DNA from: a virus
Lineage: Duplodnaviria > Heunggongvirae > Uroviricota > Caudoviricetes
Strand: one strand, 5' to 3'
DNA: 15,292 bases
IMG/VR virus record: IMGVR_UViG_2675903366_000018
The first letter of the stretch is position 1. Every line of letters starts with the position of its first letter. The translations under genes were made by a program, and so were the position numbers. The notes under the pieces were generated by a model, which saw nothing but the letters and a program-made list of their open reading frames with translations, had not been told where the DNA came from and ran no database searches. Of the stretch, positions 1,876-15,292 are shown piece by piece.

Positions 1876-3533
1876 ACCCCATCAAACGCCGCAAGCCGCT
1901 CTTTGTGGCTGTCGCTTATATCAAAGGCAAAATCTTCATGCTCTGCCTGGAATGTGCCAAACGCCATCAGCGCCGCAACGCTCGGGTCTATCTTGTTGGA
2001 TGATTTTTTCTTGTTCGGCTTGATATTGGCGTTCGCGTCACTCTGCATCACAACATTACTCATTGACCAGGCCAGCACCGGATCACCACGATGCACAATC
2101 ACCTTCCGGTTAACAAAAACTTCGAACGATTTCGCCGCCGGACTGAAACGAAGGTATGTTTGCGGGAACGGCTCCACCTCAAATCCCGCGCCCTGTAGCT
2201 GCGTCCTCAGGTGCGTGGCGTTCCATGTATCGAAACCCACCAGCCTGATATTGAAATTCTCTGCATCCGCCATGATGTCATCACGGATACGGTCATAATC
2301 AATGCAGTCACCCGGTGTTGTGCGTATCCAGCCCGCCTTTGCCCACTGGCGATAGATGGCGCGGTTTTTATTGGCAGGGTTCTGTAGCTGAAATTCCGGC
2401 AGATAGTGACGGGAAACCAGCATAATCTTTTTACCGACCGGGAAGGCATAGCACACGCTGGAAATATCGCTGGTTGATGATAAGTCCAGCCCCGCGTAGC
2501 ACTCCTGCCCGTATAAATCCGCCTCCGCGAACGTTCCGGCGCACTCCGCCCATGCACCGTTACCCATCCATGGCGTAGCCCCCTGACACCAGATGTTAAA
2601 TCGCTTAGTAAGCATCTCCACCCACTGCGACGGAATACCCCGCGCTTTCTGGATGGTTGAGGCCAGTTTTTCACGATCGACGGAAACATCGATATTGGGA
2701 TTCGCCTTTATCCACATCGCCGGATCGTCAACCTCGCTTTCATCATCCAGCTCGTAAATCAGCACGAACATGGATTCATTCACCTCTTCACCATCCAGTA
2801 TCTGGCAGCAATAGTCATAGTGTTGTTTACAGGCTGAAACAACGTTGCTCCCCGATGTGGTGATGGCAAATAACAGCCCCTCCGGGCGTGCCCCCATTCC
2901 CAGTTCAAGCGCGGAATAAACCCCGTTGTCAGGGTGCAGGTGATATTCATCCACAATGGCGAGACTCGGGTTTGTCCCCTCAATGGTTGCCGCTTTTGCT
3001 GCCAGTGGCTTTAACAGGCTGTTGGTTTTCGGGTGTATCACCTTGTGCGCCTGAATATTTACCCGCTTTCGTAACGGTCGGGATAAAAGGCACATCTGAC
3101 GCGCATCATCAAACACGATCCGCGCCTGATCACGACTCACGGCGGCGGTGTAAATATCCTGCTGCCCGTTTTCCATAACCAGAAACCAGTTAGCCAGGAT
3201 AGCCGCGACCGTGGATTTGGCATTTTTTCGCGGTACTTCAATGAATGCGCTGGTGTATTTGCGCCGTCCGGTGGCCTTAACCTTAAAGCCCAGGATGCAG
3301 GCAAAGGCGAACTGCTGCCACGGCTCCAGCTCAATGGGGCTACCGCGCATTGCGCCTTTTACGTGCGGACACACCCTGGAAAAGGCAATAAACCGCTCCA
3401 CGACCTCCGGATCGAACGTGTAAAGGGGGTTTTCAAGGTCAGAAAAATACCGTTTAACGGCCTGTTTCAGTCGTTTACAGGCCGTAATTTTGCCGTTTTT
3501 TACGCCTTCTGCGTACTCATGCCAGGTGGTCAA
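1872..3533 (-). CDS. terL: Phage terminase large subunit
   Basis: 553-aa ORF; conserved terminase N-terminus (EYAEGVKNGKITACKRLKQAVKRYF), P-loop-like VPRKNAKST and Walker-B-like LAIVDEYH. No ATG near the 5' end; most upstream start is TTG at 3531-3533 behind a purine-rich AGAGGAAGAGGA stretch, overlapping terS by 17 nt. Confidence 0.9.
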   Translation of the reverse strand: MTTWHEYAEGVKNGKITACKRLKQAVKRYFSDLENPLYTFDPEVVERFIAFSRVCPHVKGAMRGSPIELEPWQQFAFACILGFKVKATGRRKYTSAFIEVPRKNAKSTVAAILANWFLVMENGQQDIYTAAVSRDQARIVFDDARQMCLLSRPLRKRVNIQAHKVIHPKTNSLLKPLAAKAATIEGTNPSLAIVDEYHLHPDNGVYSALELGMGARPEGLLFAITTSGSNVVSACKQHYDYCCQILDGEEVNESMFVLIYELDDESEVDDPAMWIKANPNIDVSVDREKLASTIQKARGIPSQWVEMLTKRFNIWCQGATPWMGNGAWAECAGTFAEADLYGQECYAGLDLSSTSDISSVCYAFPVGKKIMLVSRHYLPEFQLQNPANKNRAIYRQWAKAGWIRTTPGDCIDYDRIRDDIMADAENFNIRLVGFDTWNATHLRTQLQGAGFEVEPFPQTYLRFSPAAKSFEVFVNRKVIVHRGDPVLAWSMSNVVMQSDANANIKPNKKKSSNKIDPSVAALMAFGTFQAEHEDFAFDISDSHKERLAAFDGV

Positions 3534-8513: not shown

Positions 8514-8762
8514 TTATTGTTTCACTGGATCCCGCATTCTGCGTCTTATTTTCCACAGATATTCGATCATCGCTTCCACCTGCTCACGGTTGGTTGCGAA
8601 AATTTCCCCGGTCAGTGAGCTGCGCAGAAAATCATGATGATCCACAACAAACAACGCATCGGAAGAAAGCAGACGGCGATATTTTTTTGCTGTCGTGGTT
8701 TCCAGATCATCAAAACCATGAAACTTTTTATGTTGCTGAACTTCTTCAAATGTCACAGGCAT
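8514..8762 (-). CDS. Hypothetical protein (82 aa)
   Basis: ATG at 8760-8762 preceded by a perfect AGGAGG; the ORF-track start at 8780 is GTG and lacks an RBS. No recognisable family by eye. Confidence 0.5.
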   Translation of the reverse strand: MPVTFEEVQQHKKFHGFDDLETTTAKKYRRLLSSDALFVVDHHDFLRSSLTGEIFATNREQVEAMIEYLWKIRRRMRDPVKQ

Positions 8763-8794
8763 GTTTCCTCCTGCTACCACGATACCAGAAACAG

Positions 8795-9091
8795 TTAATA
8801 ACCGTTATCAATTATCCCTTTTTTTTTCGGGTAGTTCCTGAACATCTCACCGCCAGGTTTCTGTAAGCCCATCCCGGTATGTGTGCGGTTTATGGCCTCT
8901 TTCAGTATTCCGAAATTATCCGGCATGACTGGTGGGCGCGCTGCCTTACGGATACATTCCTCGCGACGCTTTGCCACCTGTTCGCGCTCCTTGTCAGTGC
9001 TCACCAGCCACATAACATCAGCCCAACGTGCCGCCGCTCTCCGGTACAGCCCTTTAGCCTCCAGTTCTTCCGCTTTGCTGTCTTTAATCAT
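8795..9091 (-). CDS. Small transcriptional regulator, PerC/ANR-like (tentative)
   Basis: 98 aa from ATG 9089-9091 (GAGG 6 nt upstream); N-terminal motif AEELEAKGLYRRAAARWADVM resembles PerC/ANR-family small regulators found in enterobacterial prophages. From memory only. Confidence 0.4.
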   Translation of the reverse strand: MIKDSKAEELEAKGLYRRAAARWADVMWLVSTDKEREQVAKRREECIRKAARPPVMPDNFGILKEAINRTHTGMGLQKPGGEMFRNYPKKKGIIDNGY

Positions 9092-9106
9092 GCTGTACCT
9101 CACTGC

Positions 9107-9532
9107 TTAAAACGGTATCCCGTCCCCGTACGGATCATCGTGCTGGCCTGTCTGTTGTTTTGCCCTGTTCAGTGCGTCAGTGGCCTGGCCCTGTTGACCT
9201 TTTTTGCCGCCCGGTCGCGCCGTTCGCGCACTGATTACGCTGTCTGCAATAACCTGCCAGCCCTGCCGCGTTTCGCCGTTCTGCCCTGTCCACTGGCTTA
9301 CCTGCATGTTACCCGCCACGCTCACCAGTTCGCCTTTGCGGTGTTTTGCCAGTGCGTCGGCCTGTCTGCCAAACGCCAGGACGGATAACCACATCGTCGC
9401 CGTTCCGTCATCTGCCTGGCTGCATGGAAGGGGAACCGCCATACTCACCATCGCCATTTGTGTCCCCTTGCTGGTGGTCTTTAACTGCGGGTCAGCCACC
9501 AGCCGACCGTAAGCCGCTATCTGTGCTGTCAT
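9107..9532 (-). CDS. ssb: Single-stranded DNA-binding protein
   Basis: 141 aa; Gly/Gln-rich linker and acidic C-terminal tail ...DDPYGDGIPF, the SSB protein-interaction tip; ATG at 9530-9532 with GGAGAG upstream. Confidence 0.75.
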   Translation of the reverse strand: MTAQIAAYGRLVADPQLKTTSKGTQMAMVSMAVPLPCSQADDGTATMWLSVLAFGRQADALAKHRKGELVSVAGNMQVSQWTGQNGETRQGWQVIADSVISARTARPGGKKGQQGQATDALNRAKQQTGQHDDPYGDGIPF

Positions 9533-9742: not shown

Positions 9743-11875
9743 TTAATCTTCTGCCTCAGGCTGGAACATCAGCACGTAAAAAACATGCTGCTTCCCCCCA
9801 ATTTTGCCGAGCGCCTTTTTCTTGTAACGGCGATCGTTACCCGCTTCCAGCATTCCGGCAGCACTCAACGCGCGGGCAAAGTGAGACGGATTAAATCCCT
9901 GTGCTATCTCACCCTCAAACACATGCGGGAACGTGTAAAAACGGAACTCGTCATCTTCGTTTCTGATACTCCCCTTTCTGTATCCGGCAAGCTCTTTAAT
10001 CGGTAAATCACGCTCGTCAGAGTTGGGCCAAGGAAGGTATCTGCTGAATCCGAACGACGCTAAAAAAGCCTCTGCCTGTTCAACCATCTGTTTAAACTCC
10101 CTGTTCCCCGTGCCGAACTCCTTCACCCAGGCATTAAAATTATGCTGAATGGCATCGCGGCATTCCTGCTCATCCCAGCCAGTAACATGACCGGAAAGTA
10201 CAAGCGCGGCCTCCAGTATGGCGAATCGTTCCCCCACACGGTGAACCTGTTCGCCGTAGCTCTCCGGTATCAGGTTGCGCCACCGCTCGCGACATGCCCT
10301 TACCGCGTCCTTTGCCTCCTGCTGGTGTTCTGCCAGCCATTTAACCCACTCACGACCTGCCGCCCCGTGATTTTCTGTCCAGGCATCTTTTAACGCGTCT
10401 GCGTGCGCCTTTCCGGTGCTGTATTCGTGAAACTGCGAGGCCTTTTCCATCGGCACGTTAAGCAGACGGACAAGCTGCCCCGCTTTAATTTTTATCCCTT
10501 CCGTTTTGAGGAATGTTTCAACGTCCATTTCTCCGGTGCTGATTGCCACCGTGCGCCAGTGTTTTATCTCCCTGTTGCCGCCGTCCTTCGCCCCCTGTAA
10601 TTTCCCCGAACCGTTAAACAGCGTATAGGCTGACGTGGACACCTCCCGCGCGTTTCCGGCCTGGCCTATTTCATCCAGGGGTAACAGCCCGTCATTATGT
10701 GCTTCGGCCTCGTTGGCGATACCTAACGCCGTTCCGTACCAGGTCAGCCGTTGCGCGTCCGGCTCTCCCCATAAACTGGATGCGATGTTCTGTGTGGTGG
10801 TTTTCCCTGCTGATGACTGTTCGAAAAGATGTACCCCGAAGCCGTCAGCACCCACCAGCCCGATTAATGGTGCTGATAACGATACCGCCACACCCAGCAT
10901 CATGGACGGATTACCACCAGCCAACCGCGCAACGGTATCGCGCCAGCCCTCCGCCGTTCCTGCCTCGGAATAACCATTAACAGCGGCAGTTTTTCCGGTA
11001 AACAGGACTGGCTTTTCGCAATCACCAATGACCGAACCGTCCGGCATGATGTACGCGCCAAAATGCCAGCCCGTTGTTGTGCTTAACTGCCATTCCTCAT
11101 GGTTTCCGCTTAACTGCATCCAGTCAGCCAGGATAGCCCTGTATTTACCGTTGGTTGTCACATTCAGTCCGTGGTCTTTCAGCAGCCGCCAGCCGTCACG
11201 GTCGCCAATGCCCCCACACGGGATCGCCATTGTGATGACTTCATGGTTTGCTGGTTTTTTCCAGCGCATCACGCGGTAATGCTCTTTGCCGATTGTCCCC
11301 GTTCCCAGTAGTTCAAGCGGGGAACATAACCACGTCTCAGGCCGGATAATTTCGCCTGACTGCTTATCCACTTTTGGCGTTACCCAGAAAACACCATCGG
11401 CACGGCTTTCAACGCGGGGCTTTAATTCATCATCACCCGGGCTTGTGGTGGTTTTTTTCTTTACCGGAAGCTTAATTACCAGATCTGCAGAAAGATTCTG
11501 ACGCTCAACGTTCAGATAGCGCCGCCAGTTCTCACATTTCTGACCGTGCATTCCTTCAGGGTAAAAATTCGCATCCTGAATATCTGCCGCCGCCAGCTTC
11601 TGACCGATCTTTTTGGTCTCCACTAAATCCAGTTCTCCGGCCTGGTACAGCCTTACGCGTTTTTTCCCATCCGGAACAATTTTCAGCGCATCAAGTTCGG
11701 CAAGCTGATTTGGCCCAAGCCACACAGGCGGCACATCATCGCCAGATGCGGGGCCGTCCTGCTCCTGCCACTGTTTTGCATGTGCCCACGCATCACTACC
11801 CGCGAAAATAATTACCTCTGTGTCTTTGTGTTTTATTCCGCGTGGTTGTTTTTTTACGTTCGGTGCCAGTTTCAT
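9743..11875 (-). CDS. Replication initiator, primase/helicase-type (Pri-Rep-like), with central P-loop NTPase
   Basis: 710 aa; Walker A GVHLFEQSSAGKTTT and Walker B GLLPLDEIG in the central region; resembles DUF927/primase-associated replication proteins of satellites; ATG at 11873-11875 overlaps the upstream ORF's stop (ATGA). Confidence 0.75.
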   Translation of the reverse strand: MKLAPNVKKQPRGIKHKDTEVIIFAGSDAWAHAKQWQEQDGPASGDDVPPVWLGPNQLAELDALKIVPDGKKRVRLYQAGELDLVETKKIGQKLAAADIQDANFYPEGMHGQKCENWRRYLNVERQNLSADLVIKLPVKKKTTTSPGDDELKPRVESRADGVFWVTPKVDKQSGEIIRPETWLCSPLELLGTGTIGKEHYRVMRWKKPANHEVITMAIPCGGIGDRDGWRLLKDHGLNVTTNGKYRAILADWMQLSGNHEEWQLSTTTGWHFGAYIMPDGSVIGDCEKPVLFTGKTAAVNGYSEAGTAEGWRDTVARLAGGNPSMMLGVAVSLSAPLIGLVGADGFGVHLFEQSSAGKTTTQNIASSLWGEPDAQRLTWYGTALGIANEAEAHNDGLLPLDEIGQAGNAREVSTSAYTLFNGSGKLQGAKDGGNREIKHWRTVAISTGEMDVETFLKTEGIKIKAGQLVRLLNVPMEKASQFHEYSTGKAHADALKDAWTENHGAAGREWVKWLAEHQQEAKDAVRACRERWRNLIPESYGEQVHRVGERFAILEAALVLSGHVTGWDEQECRDAIQHNFNAWVKEFGTGNREFKQMVEQAEAFLASFGFSRYLPWPNSDERDLPIKELAGYRKGSIRNEDDEFRFYTFPHVFEGEIAQGFNPSHFARALSAAGMLEAGNDRRYKKKALGKIGGKQHVFYVLMFQPEAED

Positions 11876-12159
11876 TTCTTACCCCCTGCGACCAGCATTT
11901 CACGGATTTTGCGGATATAGCTTGCTGCACGTTTCTGATTTACGGCTTTACGATGGCCCACCAGCGTGAAATCACGCCGGAACTGATAAACAGGCATCAC
12001 GCAGTCATATTCGTAGCCATCACGGCGGTAAGTGATGCGCCGTTCTGCCACGCCTTTAATCGTTACCATGCCGCCATATTTATCGCGGTAAATATCGCCG
12101 TTCATAAATTCAGGACGAGCGGGGCCGCTGGCGGTAAAGCCAGAATTTTTATTTTTCAT
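11872..12159 (-). CDS. Hypothetical protein (95 aa), translationally coupled to the replication gene
   Basis: ATG at 12157-12159; stop overlaps the pri-rep start; basic, non-repetitive composition. Confidence 0.5.
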   Translation of the reverse strand: MKNKNSGFTASGPARPEFMNGDIYRDKYGGMVTIKGVAERRITYRRDGYEYDCVMPVYQFRRDFTLVGHRKAVNQKRAASYIRKIREMLVAGGKK

Positions 12160-12164
12160 GGTTT

Positions 12165-12392
12165 TTATTCCGCGTTTATTTTTTTATCGTGAATTTCGAT
12201 CGCTTTATTTAATTCGACGATTACCGTATCGAGTAATGAAATAAACGCACCAGCAAGATTAGATTCACGCTCATCTTCCGGCGCATCACTTAAACCATCA
12301 AGCCAGATAAGAAATATTTGCCTCAAACATTCACTGTTAGTCAGTGCGTTTTCTGCATGGCTCATTGATTTAAAATAACGGTCATCATGCAT
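12165..12392 (-). CDS. Hypothetical acidic protein (75 aa)
   Basis: ATG at 12390-12392 preceded by AGGGGG; overlaps the upstream gene's stop by 8 nt (ATGCATGA). Confidence 0.45.
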   Translation of the reverse strand: MHDDRYFKSMSHAENALTNSECLRQIFLIWLDGLSDAPEDERESNLAGAFISLLDTVIVELNKAIEIHDKKINAE

Positions 12393-12588
12393 GGCGCACC
12401 CCCTGACGAATACGGGCAGTAAATACCATCACGCAGCCATCAGGAGATTGCTGGCGAGCTTCCTGTTCGCTGGTGGCCTCGATGGTAATCACGCGCGGTT
12501 GTGTCGTGCTCAGAGCGATAAAACGCCAGATGTATTTATTCAGGTTGTGCGAGTCCCGCCCTTGCGGGTGTGTGGTATGATTTCTCAT
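12385..12588 (-). CDS. Small protein (67 aa), possibly Icd-like (host cell-division inhibitor family) - tentative
   Basis: Start taken at ATG 12586-12588 (GAGG 5 nt upstream); the 97-aa ORF-track version starts at TTG and runs through the operator-like inverted repeat. C-terminal region (QQSPDGCVMVFTARIRQGVRHA) resembles Icd-like proteins of P4-type elements, from memory only. Confidence 0.35.
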   Translation of the reverse strand: MRNHTTHPQGRDSHNLNKYIWRFIALSTTQPRVITIEATSEQEARQQSPDGCVMVFTARIRQGVRHA

Positions 12589-12686
12589 AGCTGCCTCGAT
12601 ACTCTCGTTATCGTTGGTGGTTAGACGCCCCGTATGTGTTTCCGGCACTGCGGGGCGTTGCTCTTTGTATTTCAACAATCCTTTCG

Positions 12687-12766
12687 GTGTGTTTCATGTT
12701 ATGAGCGCATGAAACACACGTCAAGGCTTTTTGTATTTCTTTTTTTGTGTATACTGAAACACACCG
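12687..12766. promoter_or_regulatory. Divergent control region: perfect 12-bp inverted repeat GTGTGTTTCATG-N9-CATGAAACACAC (12687-12719), third half-site TGAAACACACCG (12755-12766) overlapping a -10-like TATACT (12750-12755)
   Basis: Read directly from sequence; lies between the minus-strand small-gene operon and the plus-strand gene starting at 12786 (AGGAG RBS at 12773-12777). Confidence 0.45.
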
Positions 12767-12785
12767 ATGATTAGGAGTTTCAGAA

Positions 12786-13091
12786 ATGGCAACGGCTAAC
12801 AAAAACGCAAAATCACAACTGACAACTGTCAGAGTCCCACTAGATGTTATGCAAGGGATGGAATCCGTTAAGCTGGACGGCGAAAGCAATGCCGGATTTA
12901 TCGTAACCGCCATGCGCGGAGAAATAGCCCGCCGCCAAGCAGAAGGCAGCGGAGAAAATCCCCTTGTGTCGTCACTGGATGCCCTGGCTAAGGTCGAACA
13001 AATCGGCATCAAAGCAGCGGAAGAAATCGGGCAGCTTGTCACCGTTGCACGCGAAGAACTCCAGCGTCGCAAGACCAAAGAACCAGAGTAA
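12786..13091 (+). CDS. Putative DNA-binding regulator (possible ribbon-helix-helix), 101 aa
   Basis: ATG 12786 with AGGAG 8 nt upstream and promoter-like TTGTAT...TATACT; N-terminal TTVRVPLDVMQGMESV fits a beta-strand-then-helix RHH-like start. The antisense 271-aa ORF here is Ser/Cys-rich and judged spurious. Confidence 0.45.
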   Translation: MATANKNAKSQLTTVRVPLDVMQGMESVKLDGESNAGFIVTAMRGEIARRQAEGSGENPLVSSLDALAKVEQIGIKAAEEIGQLVTVAREELQRRKTKEPE

Positions 13092-13133
13092 TCACCATCA
13101 GCGCCGTGGTGTAAGGTATTACGGCGCATTGCT

Positions 13134-13322
13134 ATGCAGGACAACACAATGACCGATAAAGAATTGACCAAAACATTATCACCGGCACGGAAAAGACGGC
13201 GCAGAAAGATAGAGCATGAATCAGAAAGATTCGCGCCATGTGCTTTTGCTCTTGAGAAATTCCTTAAGGAGCACAAGAAAAAGCTATCATTGCAAACCTG
13301 GGAGCTAACCGAATCTGACTGA
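13134..13322 (+). CDS. Hypothetical small basic protein (57-62 aa; RKRRRRK motif)
   Basis: Same strand and 42 nt downstream of the preceding gene; alternative ATG at 13149 has AGGA 8 nt upstream; followed by a strong terminator. Confidence 0.35.
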   Translation: MQDNTMTDKELTKTLSPARKRRRRKIEHESERFAPCAFALEKFLKEHKKKLSLQTWELTESD

Positions 13323-13386
13323 TCACATTGCCCACCAGCCAGCAAATCGCTATGATGTTCGGGCTTATGTTTAGTGTTTTCCCATT

Positions 13387-13415
13387 GGCGACCGCCCCCG
13401 GTCGCCTTTGTTTTA
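13387..13415 (+). terminator. Rho-independent terminator closing the plus-strand two-gene module
   Basis: GGCGACCG-CCCC-CGGTCGCC (8-bp GC-rich stem) followed by TTTGTTTTA; located between the plus module and the convergent alpA 3' end. Confidence 0.55.
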
Positions 13416-13434
13416 TGTGCCATATACTCCCCCT

Positions 13435-13644
13435 TTACGCTGCCTTACCTGAATTAATGCGATCCCGGCTTTTAACCCATTCCATAACCTCGGACAGCAG
13501 CCAACCAACAGAACGACCGCCCAGATTAAGACGTGACGGAAAGCATCCTTTTTTCTCCAGTTCGTAGCGTGTAGTGCGACACACTCCAGTTAACTTACGA
13601 CATTCATCCTCACGGATTACGCGATCTTCATTTATTTCACGCAT
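13435..13644 (-). CDS. alpA: AlpA-family phage transcriptional regulator / excisionase-like HTH protein
   Basis: 69 aa from ATG 13642-13644: MREINEDRVIREDECRKLTGVCRTTRYELEKKGCFPSRLNLGGRSVGWLLSEVMEWVKSR, the AlpA-type HTH pattern. The ORF-track version starts with GTG at 13731 (98 aa) and could be the true start; the HTH position favours the shorter form. Confidence 0.75.
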   Translation of the reverse strand: MREINEDRVIREDECRKLTGVCRTTRYELEKKGCFPSRLNLGGRSVGWLLSEVMEWVKSRDRINSGKAA

Positions 13645-14053: not shown

Positions 14054-15292
14054 TCAAGAATTTTGGGTGTAAATTCGCGGGGTCATAACAACGATTTTTT
14101 CATCATTGTTCTGGAGAAGCTCGAGACGGTCTACCCATAGATTAAGAGCATCACGTTTTGCATCAAGATAACGGGAGTGGTTATAGACTCGCTGCATCCC
14201 TGGCATCTGGTGGGCTGTAAGCTGCTCGACAATATGCGGATCCACGCCTAAATCGTTCAGCATGGTTGTAAATGTGTGCCGGATGTCATGCAACGACCAG
14301 GGGGCTTGATTAATGCGTCTGTGTGCCGTTCTTCCGTACTCTGATACGGATGATTGCCCTTTCAGTTCTCCAAGCAATAAGCCCGTGTGCCTGTTCTTCT
14401 GCACCAGCTTCGTGACGAACGGCAAAATGCTTTCCGGTATTGGCCTGAATATGGCGACCTTCGTTTTGCTGTGCTCCTTCGGTACTGTCCAGAGCATTTC
14501 TTTAAAATCCCACTCCTGCACCTCAGAGCGCCTTAGCTCAGTGGTACGGCATCCAAAAACAATCAGGAGGCGAATTAGGGCGCTGTAGTATGGCGGGAAT
14601 ATTTTGTCATCCAGGGCGCGGAGTAATTCCCCAAGCTCCTTATTTGTTAGTACGCGCTCGCTCACTTCTGCTTTTTTTCCCACATCACCGACAACCATAT
14701 CATCAAGAACGTTGCTGATTGCGTATCGTCGTTTTCGGCAGTACTTAAGCGCCTGTTTGCATACCTGTAGCAAAAATCCGGCTGATACCGGATTACGCTT
14801 AGCAAGCTGGTCAAAACAGGCCAGCCAGTGGCGTAGCTCGCATTTTTCCAGTGGCATAGCGCCAATCTGGCTAATTATGTGTTTATTGATCCGGCTTTTC
14901 AGTGATTCGTAGTCAGTGCGCTTTTCCTTTGCGTACGATTCAAGCCAGTAAGTGAGCGCTTCCTTAACCGTCACGGGGGCTAACGCATCCTGTACAGCAT
15001 GATTAAGTTCATAGCGCGGATTTTTCCCCTCAGCCAGCCAGGCGCGACACTGTGCCGCTTTTTCCCTGGCAGCTTTCAGGCTCAGATCGGGATAATTGCC
15101 CAGCCTCAGACGTTCCGGTGATATCTGCCTACCAGTTCCGGCCCTGTAAGTGAAATACCAGGTTAACAGGCCATTGATTGAATGCCTTACGCTAAGGTTG
15201 CCACCATCATTAAAAAAGGTGCTTTTTGTGGTTGGTGATCCGCTTAATTTTCGTAAAAGAGTGTCGCTAAGTCTATGAATTGCCCTGCTCAT
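14054..15292 (-). CDS. int: Tyrosine site-specific integrase (P4-like family)
   Basis: 412 aa; catalytic-domain motifs GCRTTELRR, HDIRHTF (H-x-x-R) and YNHSRY (catalytic Tyr region); ATG is the last three bases of the window, so upstream attachment site and promoter are not visible. Confidence 0.9.
   Translation of the reverse strand: MSRAIHRLSDTLLRKLSGSPTTKSTFFNDGGNLSVRHSINGLLTWYFTYRAGTGRQISPERLRLGNYPDLSLKAAREKAAQCRAWLAEGKNPRYELNHAVQDALAPVTVKEALTYWLESYAKEKRTDYESLKSRINKHIISQIGAMPLEKCELRHWLACFDQLAKRNPVSAGFLLQVCKQALKYCRKRRYAISNVLDDMVVGDVGKKAEVSERVLTNKELGELLRALDDKIFPPYYSALIRLLIVFGCRTTELRRSEVQEWDFKEMLWTVPKEHSKTKVAIFRPIPESILPFVTKLVQKNRHTGLLLGELKGQSSVSEYGRTAHRRINQAPWSLHDIRHTFTTMLNDLGVDPHIVEQLTAHQMPGMQRVYNHSRYLDAKRDALNLWVDRLELLQNNDEKIVVMTPRIYTQNS

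Follow-up and report, generated by a model that had tools for sequence, protein, structure and literature searches.

A repeat in the divergent control region of a capsid-forming satellite common in Escherichia coli most probably belongs to a four-site operator for a ribbon-helix-helix protein

The stretch analysed here, referred to below as the window, is the 15,292 nt viral record IMGVR_UViG_2675903366_000018, which is a capsid-forming phage-inducible chromosomal island (cf-PICI). Between its leftward replication operon and a rightward gene for a 101-aa protein lies a region (12589–12785) that holds a perfect inverted repeat. In all likelihood the repeat belongs to a four-site operator through which the replication genes of this satellite, a very common one in E. 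coli, are silenced. We put at just under 70 % the probability that 12573–12785 is the immunity or maintenance switch of the island, in which the 101-aa protein would act as a ribbon-helix-helix (RHH) repressor on four boxes, together with an antisense RNA. A first-pass annotation had likened the region to a repressor/anti-repressor switch and named it the best candidate for the master control of replication. That reading was partly right, in that the region appears to be an operator for the adjacent RHH protein laid over the divergent promoters of the replication operon, but it was incomplete and overstated. The ATG of the first leftward gene occupies 12588–12586 on the minus strand, so that 12589 is the first intergenic base. 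The fourth box and a plus-strand structured RNA (12588–12667), which fills half of the annotated interval, were absent from that annotation.

The inverted repeat consists of GTGTGTTTCATG at 12687–12698, which is perfectly complementary to CATGAAACACAC at 12708–12719 across a spacer of 9 nt. Direct reading and a repeat finder concur on this 12 bp repeat, as it had been annotated, and the finder extends the pair to 26 nt arms at 81 %. No other perfect 12 bp inverted repeat in the window has a spacer of at most 20 nt; a comparable repeat arose in 23 of 1000 dinucleotide-preserving shuffles. A third exact copy, TGAAACACAC, is located at 12755–12764, and TGAAACACACCGA (12755–12767) is a perfect 13 nt complement of 12684–12696. 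With at most one mismatch, the 9-mer TGTGTTTCA is found four times in 110 nt (12666, 12688, 12710 and 12755), where composition predicts about 0.023 copies; corrected for the number of 110 nt windows, a Poisson estimate for such a four-copy cluster is roughly 1e-6. The single occurrence of the palindrome and the clustering of the 9-mer relative to expectation indicate that the repeat is real and not a product of chance.

Comparison was made with 24 related loci from eight or more genera, including E. coli, Klebsiella, Salmonella, Yersinia, Enterobacter, Serratia, Xenorhabdus, Photorhabdus, Erwinia and Pantoea, among others. When each locus was searched de novo for repeated words, most had one at positions close to −98, −76, −53 and −31 relative to the rightward ATG, so that successive boxes are 22–23 bp, or two helical turns, apart. 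The palindrome is half of this phased array of four boxes of 9–11 bp, which stand in the window at 12688 (plus), 12710 (minus), 12732 (plus, degenerate TGTATTTC) and 12755 (minus). The palindrome and orphan half-site of the first-pass annotation are real repeats, but with the fourth, degenerate box the unit becomes two pairs of boxes. Two additional box-like words, at 12635–12643 (within a hairpin of the RNA) and 12666–12674, were considered as operators and set aside, being either not class-specific or not conserved in relatives. The second of these (TGTATTTCA, 22 bp upstream of box 1) arises from a 14 nt direct repeat, GCTCTTTGTATTTC (12660–12673) and GCTTTTTGTATTTC (12726–12739), with copies 66 bp apart; the first copy is the tail of the terminal hairpin of the RNA and the second includes box 3.

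The positions of the boxes relative to predicted promoters suggest what the array may do. A promoter scan found a good leftward sigma-70 promoter, P_L, on the minus strand at 12696–12724 (−35 TTGACG at 12724–12719, 17 nt spacer, −10 TAACAT at 12701–12696), with a predicted start near 12689. Box 1, the left arm of the palindrome (12687–12698), lies directly downstream of this −10 and over the predicted start, and box 2, the right arm (12708–12719), lies in the P_L spacer beside the −35. The same layout of TTGACx, a 17 nt spacer opening with box 2, TAAnnT and then box 1 is found in most of the 19 loci examined, which agrees with the earlier view of a divergent control region. The putative rightward promoter, P_R, has its −10 in a conserved column block, TATACT at 12750–12755 on the plus strand, which reads TATAAT in most relatives. 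Its −10 is bracketed by box 3 (TTGTATTTCT, 12731–12740), at the −35 position, and box 4 (TGAAACACACCG, 12755–12766), at the −10/+1 edge. Box 3 is degenerate in the window and perfect in some of the other specificity classes described below. Box 4 had been annotated as a third half-site over the −10; the extra copy is genuine, but it abuts TATACT, shares one base with it and covers the −10/+1 edge. Judged by sequence and conservation, the putative operator overlaps both of the divergent promoters.

The 101-aa protein is encoded on the plus strand at 12786–13091 and is named in RefSeq as a ‘YlcI/YnfO family protein’. It matches the NCBIfam model YlcI_YnfO_N with 63.2 bits against a cut-off of 30; the family is without an assigned fold. 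An AlphaFold2 (AF2) model of residues 1–58 (predicted local distance difference test score 81) has an extended strand followed by helices at 19–28 and 35–54, which is the strand-helix-helix arrangement of about 45 residues that characterizes the RHH superfamily (Arc/MetJ/CopG). The N-terminal strand alternates polar and hydrophobic residues and ends in Pro, and the interhelix turn typical of the superfamily is present at G32-E33-S34; in most of 24 aligned sequences this turn is G-E-S/T, six having N-E-S or D-E-S/T instead. All 24 share R16, P18 and E33, and UniRef calls two members ‘Arc-like DNA binding domain-containing protein’. The model and the conservation of the turn bear out the annotation of this product as RHH-like. 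As profile comparison with Arc and Mnt was weak, the protein is filed under the RHH fold (residues ~9–54) and not under the Arc or Mnt families. A tblastn search of 50,697 phage records returned no match for it, and thus it cannot be named from a characterized phage homologue. No functional study of a YlcI/YnfO-family protein or of the RNA was found in the searchable literature; the one paper that lists YlcI/YnfO in satellites labels it merely a ‘prophage-associated protein’.

Residues 59–98 are modelled as a single long helix. The C-terminal half of the protein is 87–91 % identical across specificity classes in which the N-terminal domains are only 56 % identical to that of the window, as would be expected of a partner-binding or oligomerization surface. 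An invariant segment, LSSLDAL..VE.IG.K.A.EI (residues 60–86, 12963–13043), shows weak similarity by profile (E = 0.005) to a domain of the nuclease Hef, its helix-hairpin-helix domain, and AlphaFold places this segment inside the one continuous helix. Sequence searches of the PDB with both profiles gave no RHH match and only this weak helix-hairpin-helix-like match to Hef.

The evidence that ties the boxes to this protein is comparative. Promoter elements and T-tracts are constant across loci, and the four boxes change in concert between classes. Nine combinations of strand residues 12 and 14 correspond to nine box types, and these residues align with Q9 and N11 of Arc, which are base-contacting. 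Strand SQLTTVRVP (L,T) goes with box GTGTGTTTCA, SQSLTARIP (S,T) with GGTGTAAG, SKQISIRIP (Q,S) with TGTGATTCA and SQQLNARFP (Q,N) with TGGTATTCA; likewise, SQMKNIRFP goes with GGTGT(AT)GTACA, SQ(L/V)KN(I/V)RIP with GTGTGTATTT, SQIKNVRVP with GGTGTGCATT and SQMTTIRVP with GTGA(G/T)ATATA. Out of 9 positions, boxes of the same locus share 7.8 and boxes of different classes 6.5, compared with 5.7 for random 17-mers. The box type was also predicted from the strand before the DNA was fetched, correctly in three of four cases. A simple recognition code from residues 12, 14 and 16 was tried and dropped, since it held in three prospective cases and failed for P0036 (L12M, V15I, new box).

Individual loci separate the 101-aa protein from other candidates. 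Locus L018 is nearly identical to the window in AlpA (97 %) and integrase (95 %), and both its 57-aa protein, encoded after the RHH gene, and its RHH C-terminal half are 91 % identical, yet its RHH N-terminal domain is only 56 % identical and its boxes differ. Conversely, L002 and L008 have the box type of the window and, within their stretches, no recognizable homologue of its AlpA or Icd-like protein, and L001 has boxes identical to those of the window and a primase of a different family (D5-type instead of DUF927). L018 and L031 have common boxes and different first leftward genes, the one in L031 encoding a Phage_ASH protein. By this pattern, in which the boxes follow the N-terminal strand of the 101-aa protein and neither AlpA nor the integrase, and are likewise independent of which first leftward gene or type of primase is present, all four boxes would belong to the 101-aa protein. 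In the K-N classes (L007, L011, L012, L018, L031 and L032) the inner boxes are turned round and the array reads right, right, left, left, which fits RHH dimers each seated on one box.

This geometry bears on whether the protein could bind the array mainly as an activator or architectural factor, in the manner of omega or ParG, for segregation or for its own promoter. Phased repeats whose orientation varies are characteristic of RHH proteins of the omega and ParG types, and Mnt of phage P22 activates its own promoter while repressing the opposing one. However, no partition ATPase is encoded in the window, and boxes on the P_L spacer and −10/+1 region predict occlusion of RNA polymerase; we regard a mainly activating or architectural role as improbable.

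Binding of the boxes by some other island protein, such as AlpA, the Icd-like protein or a primase/initiator acting on origin iterons, is given little weight. In EcCICFT073, AlpA binds DNA and activates downstream genes (PMC6092414), the origins of PICIs are made up of short repeats and the PHROG label for the Icd-like family is ‘transcriptional repressor’. Each of these candidates is nevertheless uncoupled from the boxes by the loci above: AlpA by L018, the first leftward product by L002 and L008, whose stretches have no recognizable homologue of the Icd-like protein, and by L031, with its Phage_ASH protein, the boxes being unchanged, and the primase by L001. The box type, in contrast, always follows the N-terminal domain of the 101-aa protein.

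It is similarly doubtful that the 101-aa protein is the type II antitoxin of the 57-aa protein, with boxes that autoregulate the pair and overlap P_L incidentally. Most loci with the RHH gene and all four boxes lack the 57-aa gene, and the product of the latter matches no toxin family, family searches returning no match at all. The strongest boxes (1 and 2) are located on P_L and not on the promoter of the RHH gene, an arrangement kept in most of the 19 loci. Least probable is that the palindrome functions as an RNA hairpin (an attenuator, terminator or processing site): the 47 nt at 12680–12726 do fold to −21.5 kcal/mol (z = −5.4), but the K-N classes have direct instead of inverted repeats at these positions, which rules out a hairpin there, the stem is followed by no T-run, the predicted leftward start within box 1 leaves only one arm in the leftward RNA, and the same word recurs at boxes 3 and 4 in 22 bp phase.

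A second conserved element, a predicted structured RNA of about 80 nt on the plus strand (12588–12667) with a U-rich tail to about 12675, is located between box 1 and the first leftward gene. It consists of a smaller hairpin (12597–12613), a GC-rich hairpin (12622–12660) and a closing helix, and is antisense to the 5′ leader, Shine–Dalgarno sequence and start codon of the first leftward gene. In an alignment of 17 loci, RNAalifold gave −28.6 kcal/mol for the plus strand and −11.4 for the minus strand; 95.9 % of alignment cells were paired and 13 of 23 pairs carried compensatory changes, values reached by none of 500 shuffles, with slid controls about 40 % paired. By our own tally, 57 of 391 cells are G-U pairs, which become A-C mismatches on the opposite strand, indicating that the structure has been selected in an RNA read rightwards. 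The sequence of the window itself folds to −37.1 kcal/mol (z = −4.6) on the plus strand and −22.5 (z = −2.2) on the minus strand. A covariance model found a plus-strand match at this position in every locus searched, including six outside its training set (EDL933, 52.6 bits; L028–L032, 60–85 bits), and the match abuts or overlaps the first leftward start codon whatever gene stands there. The simplest reading of this one-strand structure, with its covariation and G-U pairs, is that the element is a cis-antisense RNA of about 80 nt over the leader, Shine–Dalgarno sequence and start codon of the leftward operon.

A candidate extended −10 promoter for the RNA, TGgTATGAT, is located at 12573–12581 on the plus strand, inside the coding sequence of the first leftward gene; a TAnnnT hexamer, often after TG, is fixed 6 nt upstream of the RNA model start in 21 of 21 loci. 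The tail is U-rich and interrupted, reading GCUCUUUGUAUUU in the window and UUUGCUUUUUU in EDL933. No Rfam family matched the window at gathering score, and a search of 12300–12900 at E values up to 10 gave only chance miRNA and snoRNA matches. In particular, the C4 and IsrK families (RF01695, RF01394), which have been reported in some Gram-negative PICIs (PMC10111431), were found neither at gathering score in the window nor at E up to 10 within 12300–12900. In the E. coli locus L028 there is a second full-length copy of the RNA motif (3174–3253, plus, 70.9 bits), downstream of the RHH gene and between two small plus-strand genes.

Taken together, these elements suggest the following mechanism. 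The 101-aa protein would bind as RHH dimers to four phased boxes about 22 bp apart, the dimers probably being joined into higher oligomers through the long C-terminal helix. In the resting island, occupation of boxes 1 and 2 would block RNA polymerase at P_L, and with P_L shut the early operon of Icd-like, DUF4222 and primase genes would be off and replication blocked. At higher protein levels boxes 3 and 4 would be filled, resulting in negative autoregulation; the degenerate box 3 predicts weaker binding at the protein's own promoter. As a second layer, rightward transcription of the RNA would begin within the 5′ end of the first leftward gene, and the RNA, being fully complementary to the leader, ribosome-binding site and start codon, could block translation of leftward transcripts that escape. 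How the block might be lifted is a matter for speculation. As alpA faces the repressor unit from its 3′ side, leftward transcription that depends on AlpA might cross the repressor gene in antisense; alternatively, a protein of the helper phage might bind the conserved C-terminal helix.

Within the RHH coding region there are also minus-strand terminator-like hairpins, at 12953–12928 and at 12832–12819 with tail TTGTGATTTT; terminator-like sites number 8 in 12300–13500, where 1.7 are expected. These hairpins would halt read-through from alpA short of the leftward promoter, unless AlpA antiterminates. Pseudomonas AlpA is reported to be an antiterminator (PMC7969949).

Two elements of the first-pass interpretation do not carry over into this scheme. 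The boxes are tied by the comparative data to the 101-aa protein, which favours the repressor half of the proposed switch; an anti-repressor, however, is without support, as the first leftward gene encodes an Icd-like small protein and relatives with the same boxes have an unrelated gene there. The term ‘master control’ is likewise overstated and unproven, since AlpA is the experimentally required activator in related islands, being needed for induction of EcCICFT073 and EcCIEDL933 (PMC6092414; 10.1101/2022.09.08.507074).

Several further points weigh against a switch run by the 101-aa protein. The established switch in related islands is AlpA and not this protein. DNA binding, repression and oligomeric state of the protein, the firing of P_L and P_R and transcription of the RNA are all predictions, made from sequence. 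No Pfam family matches the protein above threshold (18 of 24 members show a weak match to PF07704), and hhalign comparisons were weak with Arc (E = 0.0044, probability 7.8 %) and showed no detectable homology with Mnt (E = 0.056, probability 1 %, 14 columns), neither result counting as evidence of membership. Box orientation varies by class and the 22 bp spacing is twice the half-site spacing of Arc and Mnt, which implies a binding geometry unlike the textbook cases. The prediction of box type failed for P0036 (SQMTTIRVP), where a new type was found, all four boxes having changed together. As the loci are related, concerted change could also partly reflect exchange of whole modules instead of stepwise co-evolution. 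P_R has a good −10, but its −35 is poor or unrecognizable and the promoter scan made no call there, so that P_R is itself a putative promoter. Lastly, the conservation of the candidate RNA promoter, which lies in coding sequence, could be due to constraint on the protein.

The closest analogues of the proposed switch appear to be immI of phage P22 (Mnt, sar RNA) and CopG/RNAII of plasmid pMV158. P22 immI comprises the RHH repressor Mnt with a C-terminal oligomerization helix, its operator O_mnt, the divergent promoters P_ant and P_mnt and the sar antisense RNA. Likewise, the window has a divergent gene for a predicted RHH repressor with a long C-terminal helix (59–98), here a modelled one, which recalls the tetramerization helix of Mnt, and a predicted operator that overlaps the promoter of the opposing operon. 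As with sar, the small antisense RNA predicted here would begin within the repressed operon and overlie a ribosome-binding site. Unlike P22 immI, there is no detectable homology to Mnt, the boxes are four at 22 bp and not two half-sites at ~11 bp, and the operon encodes Icd-like and replication proteins instead of an antirepressor, with no second RHH protein (Arc) within it. The host element also differs, being a satellite and not a phage, and tblastn finds no phage copy.

In pMV158, CopG (RHH) and the antisense RNAII both act on repB, and the gene for CopG is transcribed together with repB in an operon that CopG itself represses. The window would share with pMV158 the control of a replication-initiator operon at two levels, by an RHH repressor and by an antisense RNA that blocks the initiation of translation, although in the window the repressor is divergent, the predicted antisense RNA is directed against a small gene, the first in an operon of several, and there is no homology. 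An RNA-based block on an operon with an icd-like first gene also recalls immI of P1 and P7 (c4 RNA, icd, ant) and the CI RNA of P4. In P1, downstream expression is coupled to translation of icd. The c4 and CI RNAs are cut from the same strand as their targets and act via short complementary boxes; the predicted RNA of the window is, in contrast, cis-encoded and antisense, and lacks sequence homology to them. A divergent repressor between integration and replication modules is found in the Stl/Rpr systems of SaPIs (pathogenicity islands from Staphylococcus aureus) and Gram-positive PICIs (PMC6092414). However, the Stl repressors are large helix-turn-helix proteins that are inactivated by helper-phage proteins, unlike the 101-aa RHH protein.

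The assignment of the window to the cf-PICIs rests on its genes, which include int, alpA, primase/rep, capsid, protease, portal, connectors, HNH, TerS and TerL, with tail genes absent, and on a gene order that is the same as in the type element EcCIEDL933 (10.1101/2022.09.08.507074). The integrase gene is located at 14054–15292 (minus), followed by alpA at 13435–13644 (minus), which is convergent with the rightward unit. The latter contains the RHH gene and, co-oriented downstream, a gene for the 57-aa basic protein (13149–13322, plus) that only some relatives have. It ends just ahead of alpA in a strong terminator-like hairpin (13387–13406, plus; GGCGACCG-CCCC-CGGTCGCC then TTTGTTTTAT). The leftward operon begins with the 67-aa Icd-like gene (12385–12588, minus; ‘host cell division inhibitor Icd-like protein’ in RefSeq), followed by genes for a 75-aa protein (12165–12392), DUF4222 (11872–12159) and the DUF927 primase (9743–11875). 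Past the primase are genes for SSB and PerC, then major capsid, prohead protease, portal, head completion, connector, HNH, TerS and TerL. At least a partial match to the 1.5 kb regulatory region is present in 1772 of 5426 complete E. coli genomes; the 231 bp switch region is matched in part in 989 of them, 194 with coverage of 80 % or more; in E. coli SMS-3-5 and ERP001, which carry the island, it is 99.6 % identical.

The PerC-family regulator gene is located between the SSB and capsid genes (8795–9103, minus), as in EcCIEDL933. A PerC homologue of another PICI has been reported to repress LEE1 (PMC11773190). The ‘putative repressor’ of EcCIMP1 was considered as a relative of the 101-aa protein and discarded, being a PerC protein and unrelated. 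At the far left end of the island, past TerL, a 27 nt palindrome, GCCACTTTTCCACCAATGGTGGAAAAGCCCAC (11 bp arms, 2 nt loop), occurs twice, at 296–322 and 1007–1033, with the copies 711 bp apart. Additionally, a 10,790 bp E. coli plasmid record, NZ_CP148328.1 (match H31), encodes a YlcI/YnfO protein of 85 % identity; this record may be an excised circular satellite and not a plasmid.

A minus-strand open reading frame (ORF) of 271 codons (12608–13423) lies antisense to the whole RHH gene, to the 57-aa gene and to most of the intergenic switch. In the same relative phase, 14 of 18 related loci have a stop-free stretch of 237–418 codons; L007, L011 and L021 have a broken frame, and that of L027 ends inside the intergenic region. 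It was rejected as the primary gene, having no Pfam or NCBIfam match and being interrupted in 4 of 18 loci with an intact RHH gene. Neither the RHH protein nor the 57-aa protein contains tyrosine, so that most routes to a stop in the antisense phase are closed. The frame is probably a shadow ORF, whose persistence across the intergenic region is not fully explained. In L027, which is EcCIEDL933 of E. coli EDL933, RefSeq annotates it as a 247-aa hypothetical protein (8695–9438, minus). On the plus strand of that locus there is an unannotated 63-aa ORF at 8804–8995 (…SPQFRMRISPELKEQF…), followed by the conserved 57-aa gene. The weak matches of the 63-aa ORF are all to RHH families (HicB, Arc, TraJ, RelB, YlcI_YnfO_N), and upstream of it are two direct AGGTGACCAC repeats, a leftward TTGACA and the plus-strand RNA motif (52.6 bits). 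The published gene map of EcCIEDL933, which runs in one direction, may therefore be missing a divergent regulator.

A broader proposal can be offered tentatively, with the odds somewhat against it as a whole. The RHH protein would be the missing maintenance repressor of Gram-negative PICIs and cf-PICIs, and the strand/box classes, at least nine, would be satellite ‘immunity types’ that do not cross-repress within one cell. The block would be lifted by a helper phage or by AlpA-driven convergent transcription across the repressor gene, and the cis-antisense RNA, as a new family, would be a second, post-transcriptional lock on a toxic Icd-like gene and the replication operon. Such a system would have been overlooked in part through annotation of the shadow ORF, as in EcCIEDL933.

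The region appears to be an uncharacterized switch of a well-known kind, in a class of elements without an identified repressor, and the general picture of how RHH repressors act is unchanged by it. Gram-negative PICIs are thought to differ from their Gram-positive counterparts in relying on the activator AlpA, with no identified repressor. The antisense RNA would constitute a new Rfam family, and the strand/box classes would represent a natural set of orthogonal repressor–operator pairs. If the 101-aa protein is indeed the repressor, it would provide a handle on how these satellites are kept silent, how they are woken by helper phages and why co-resident satellites do not cross-talk.

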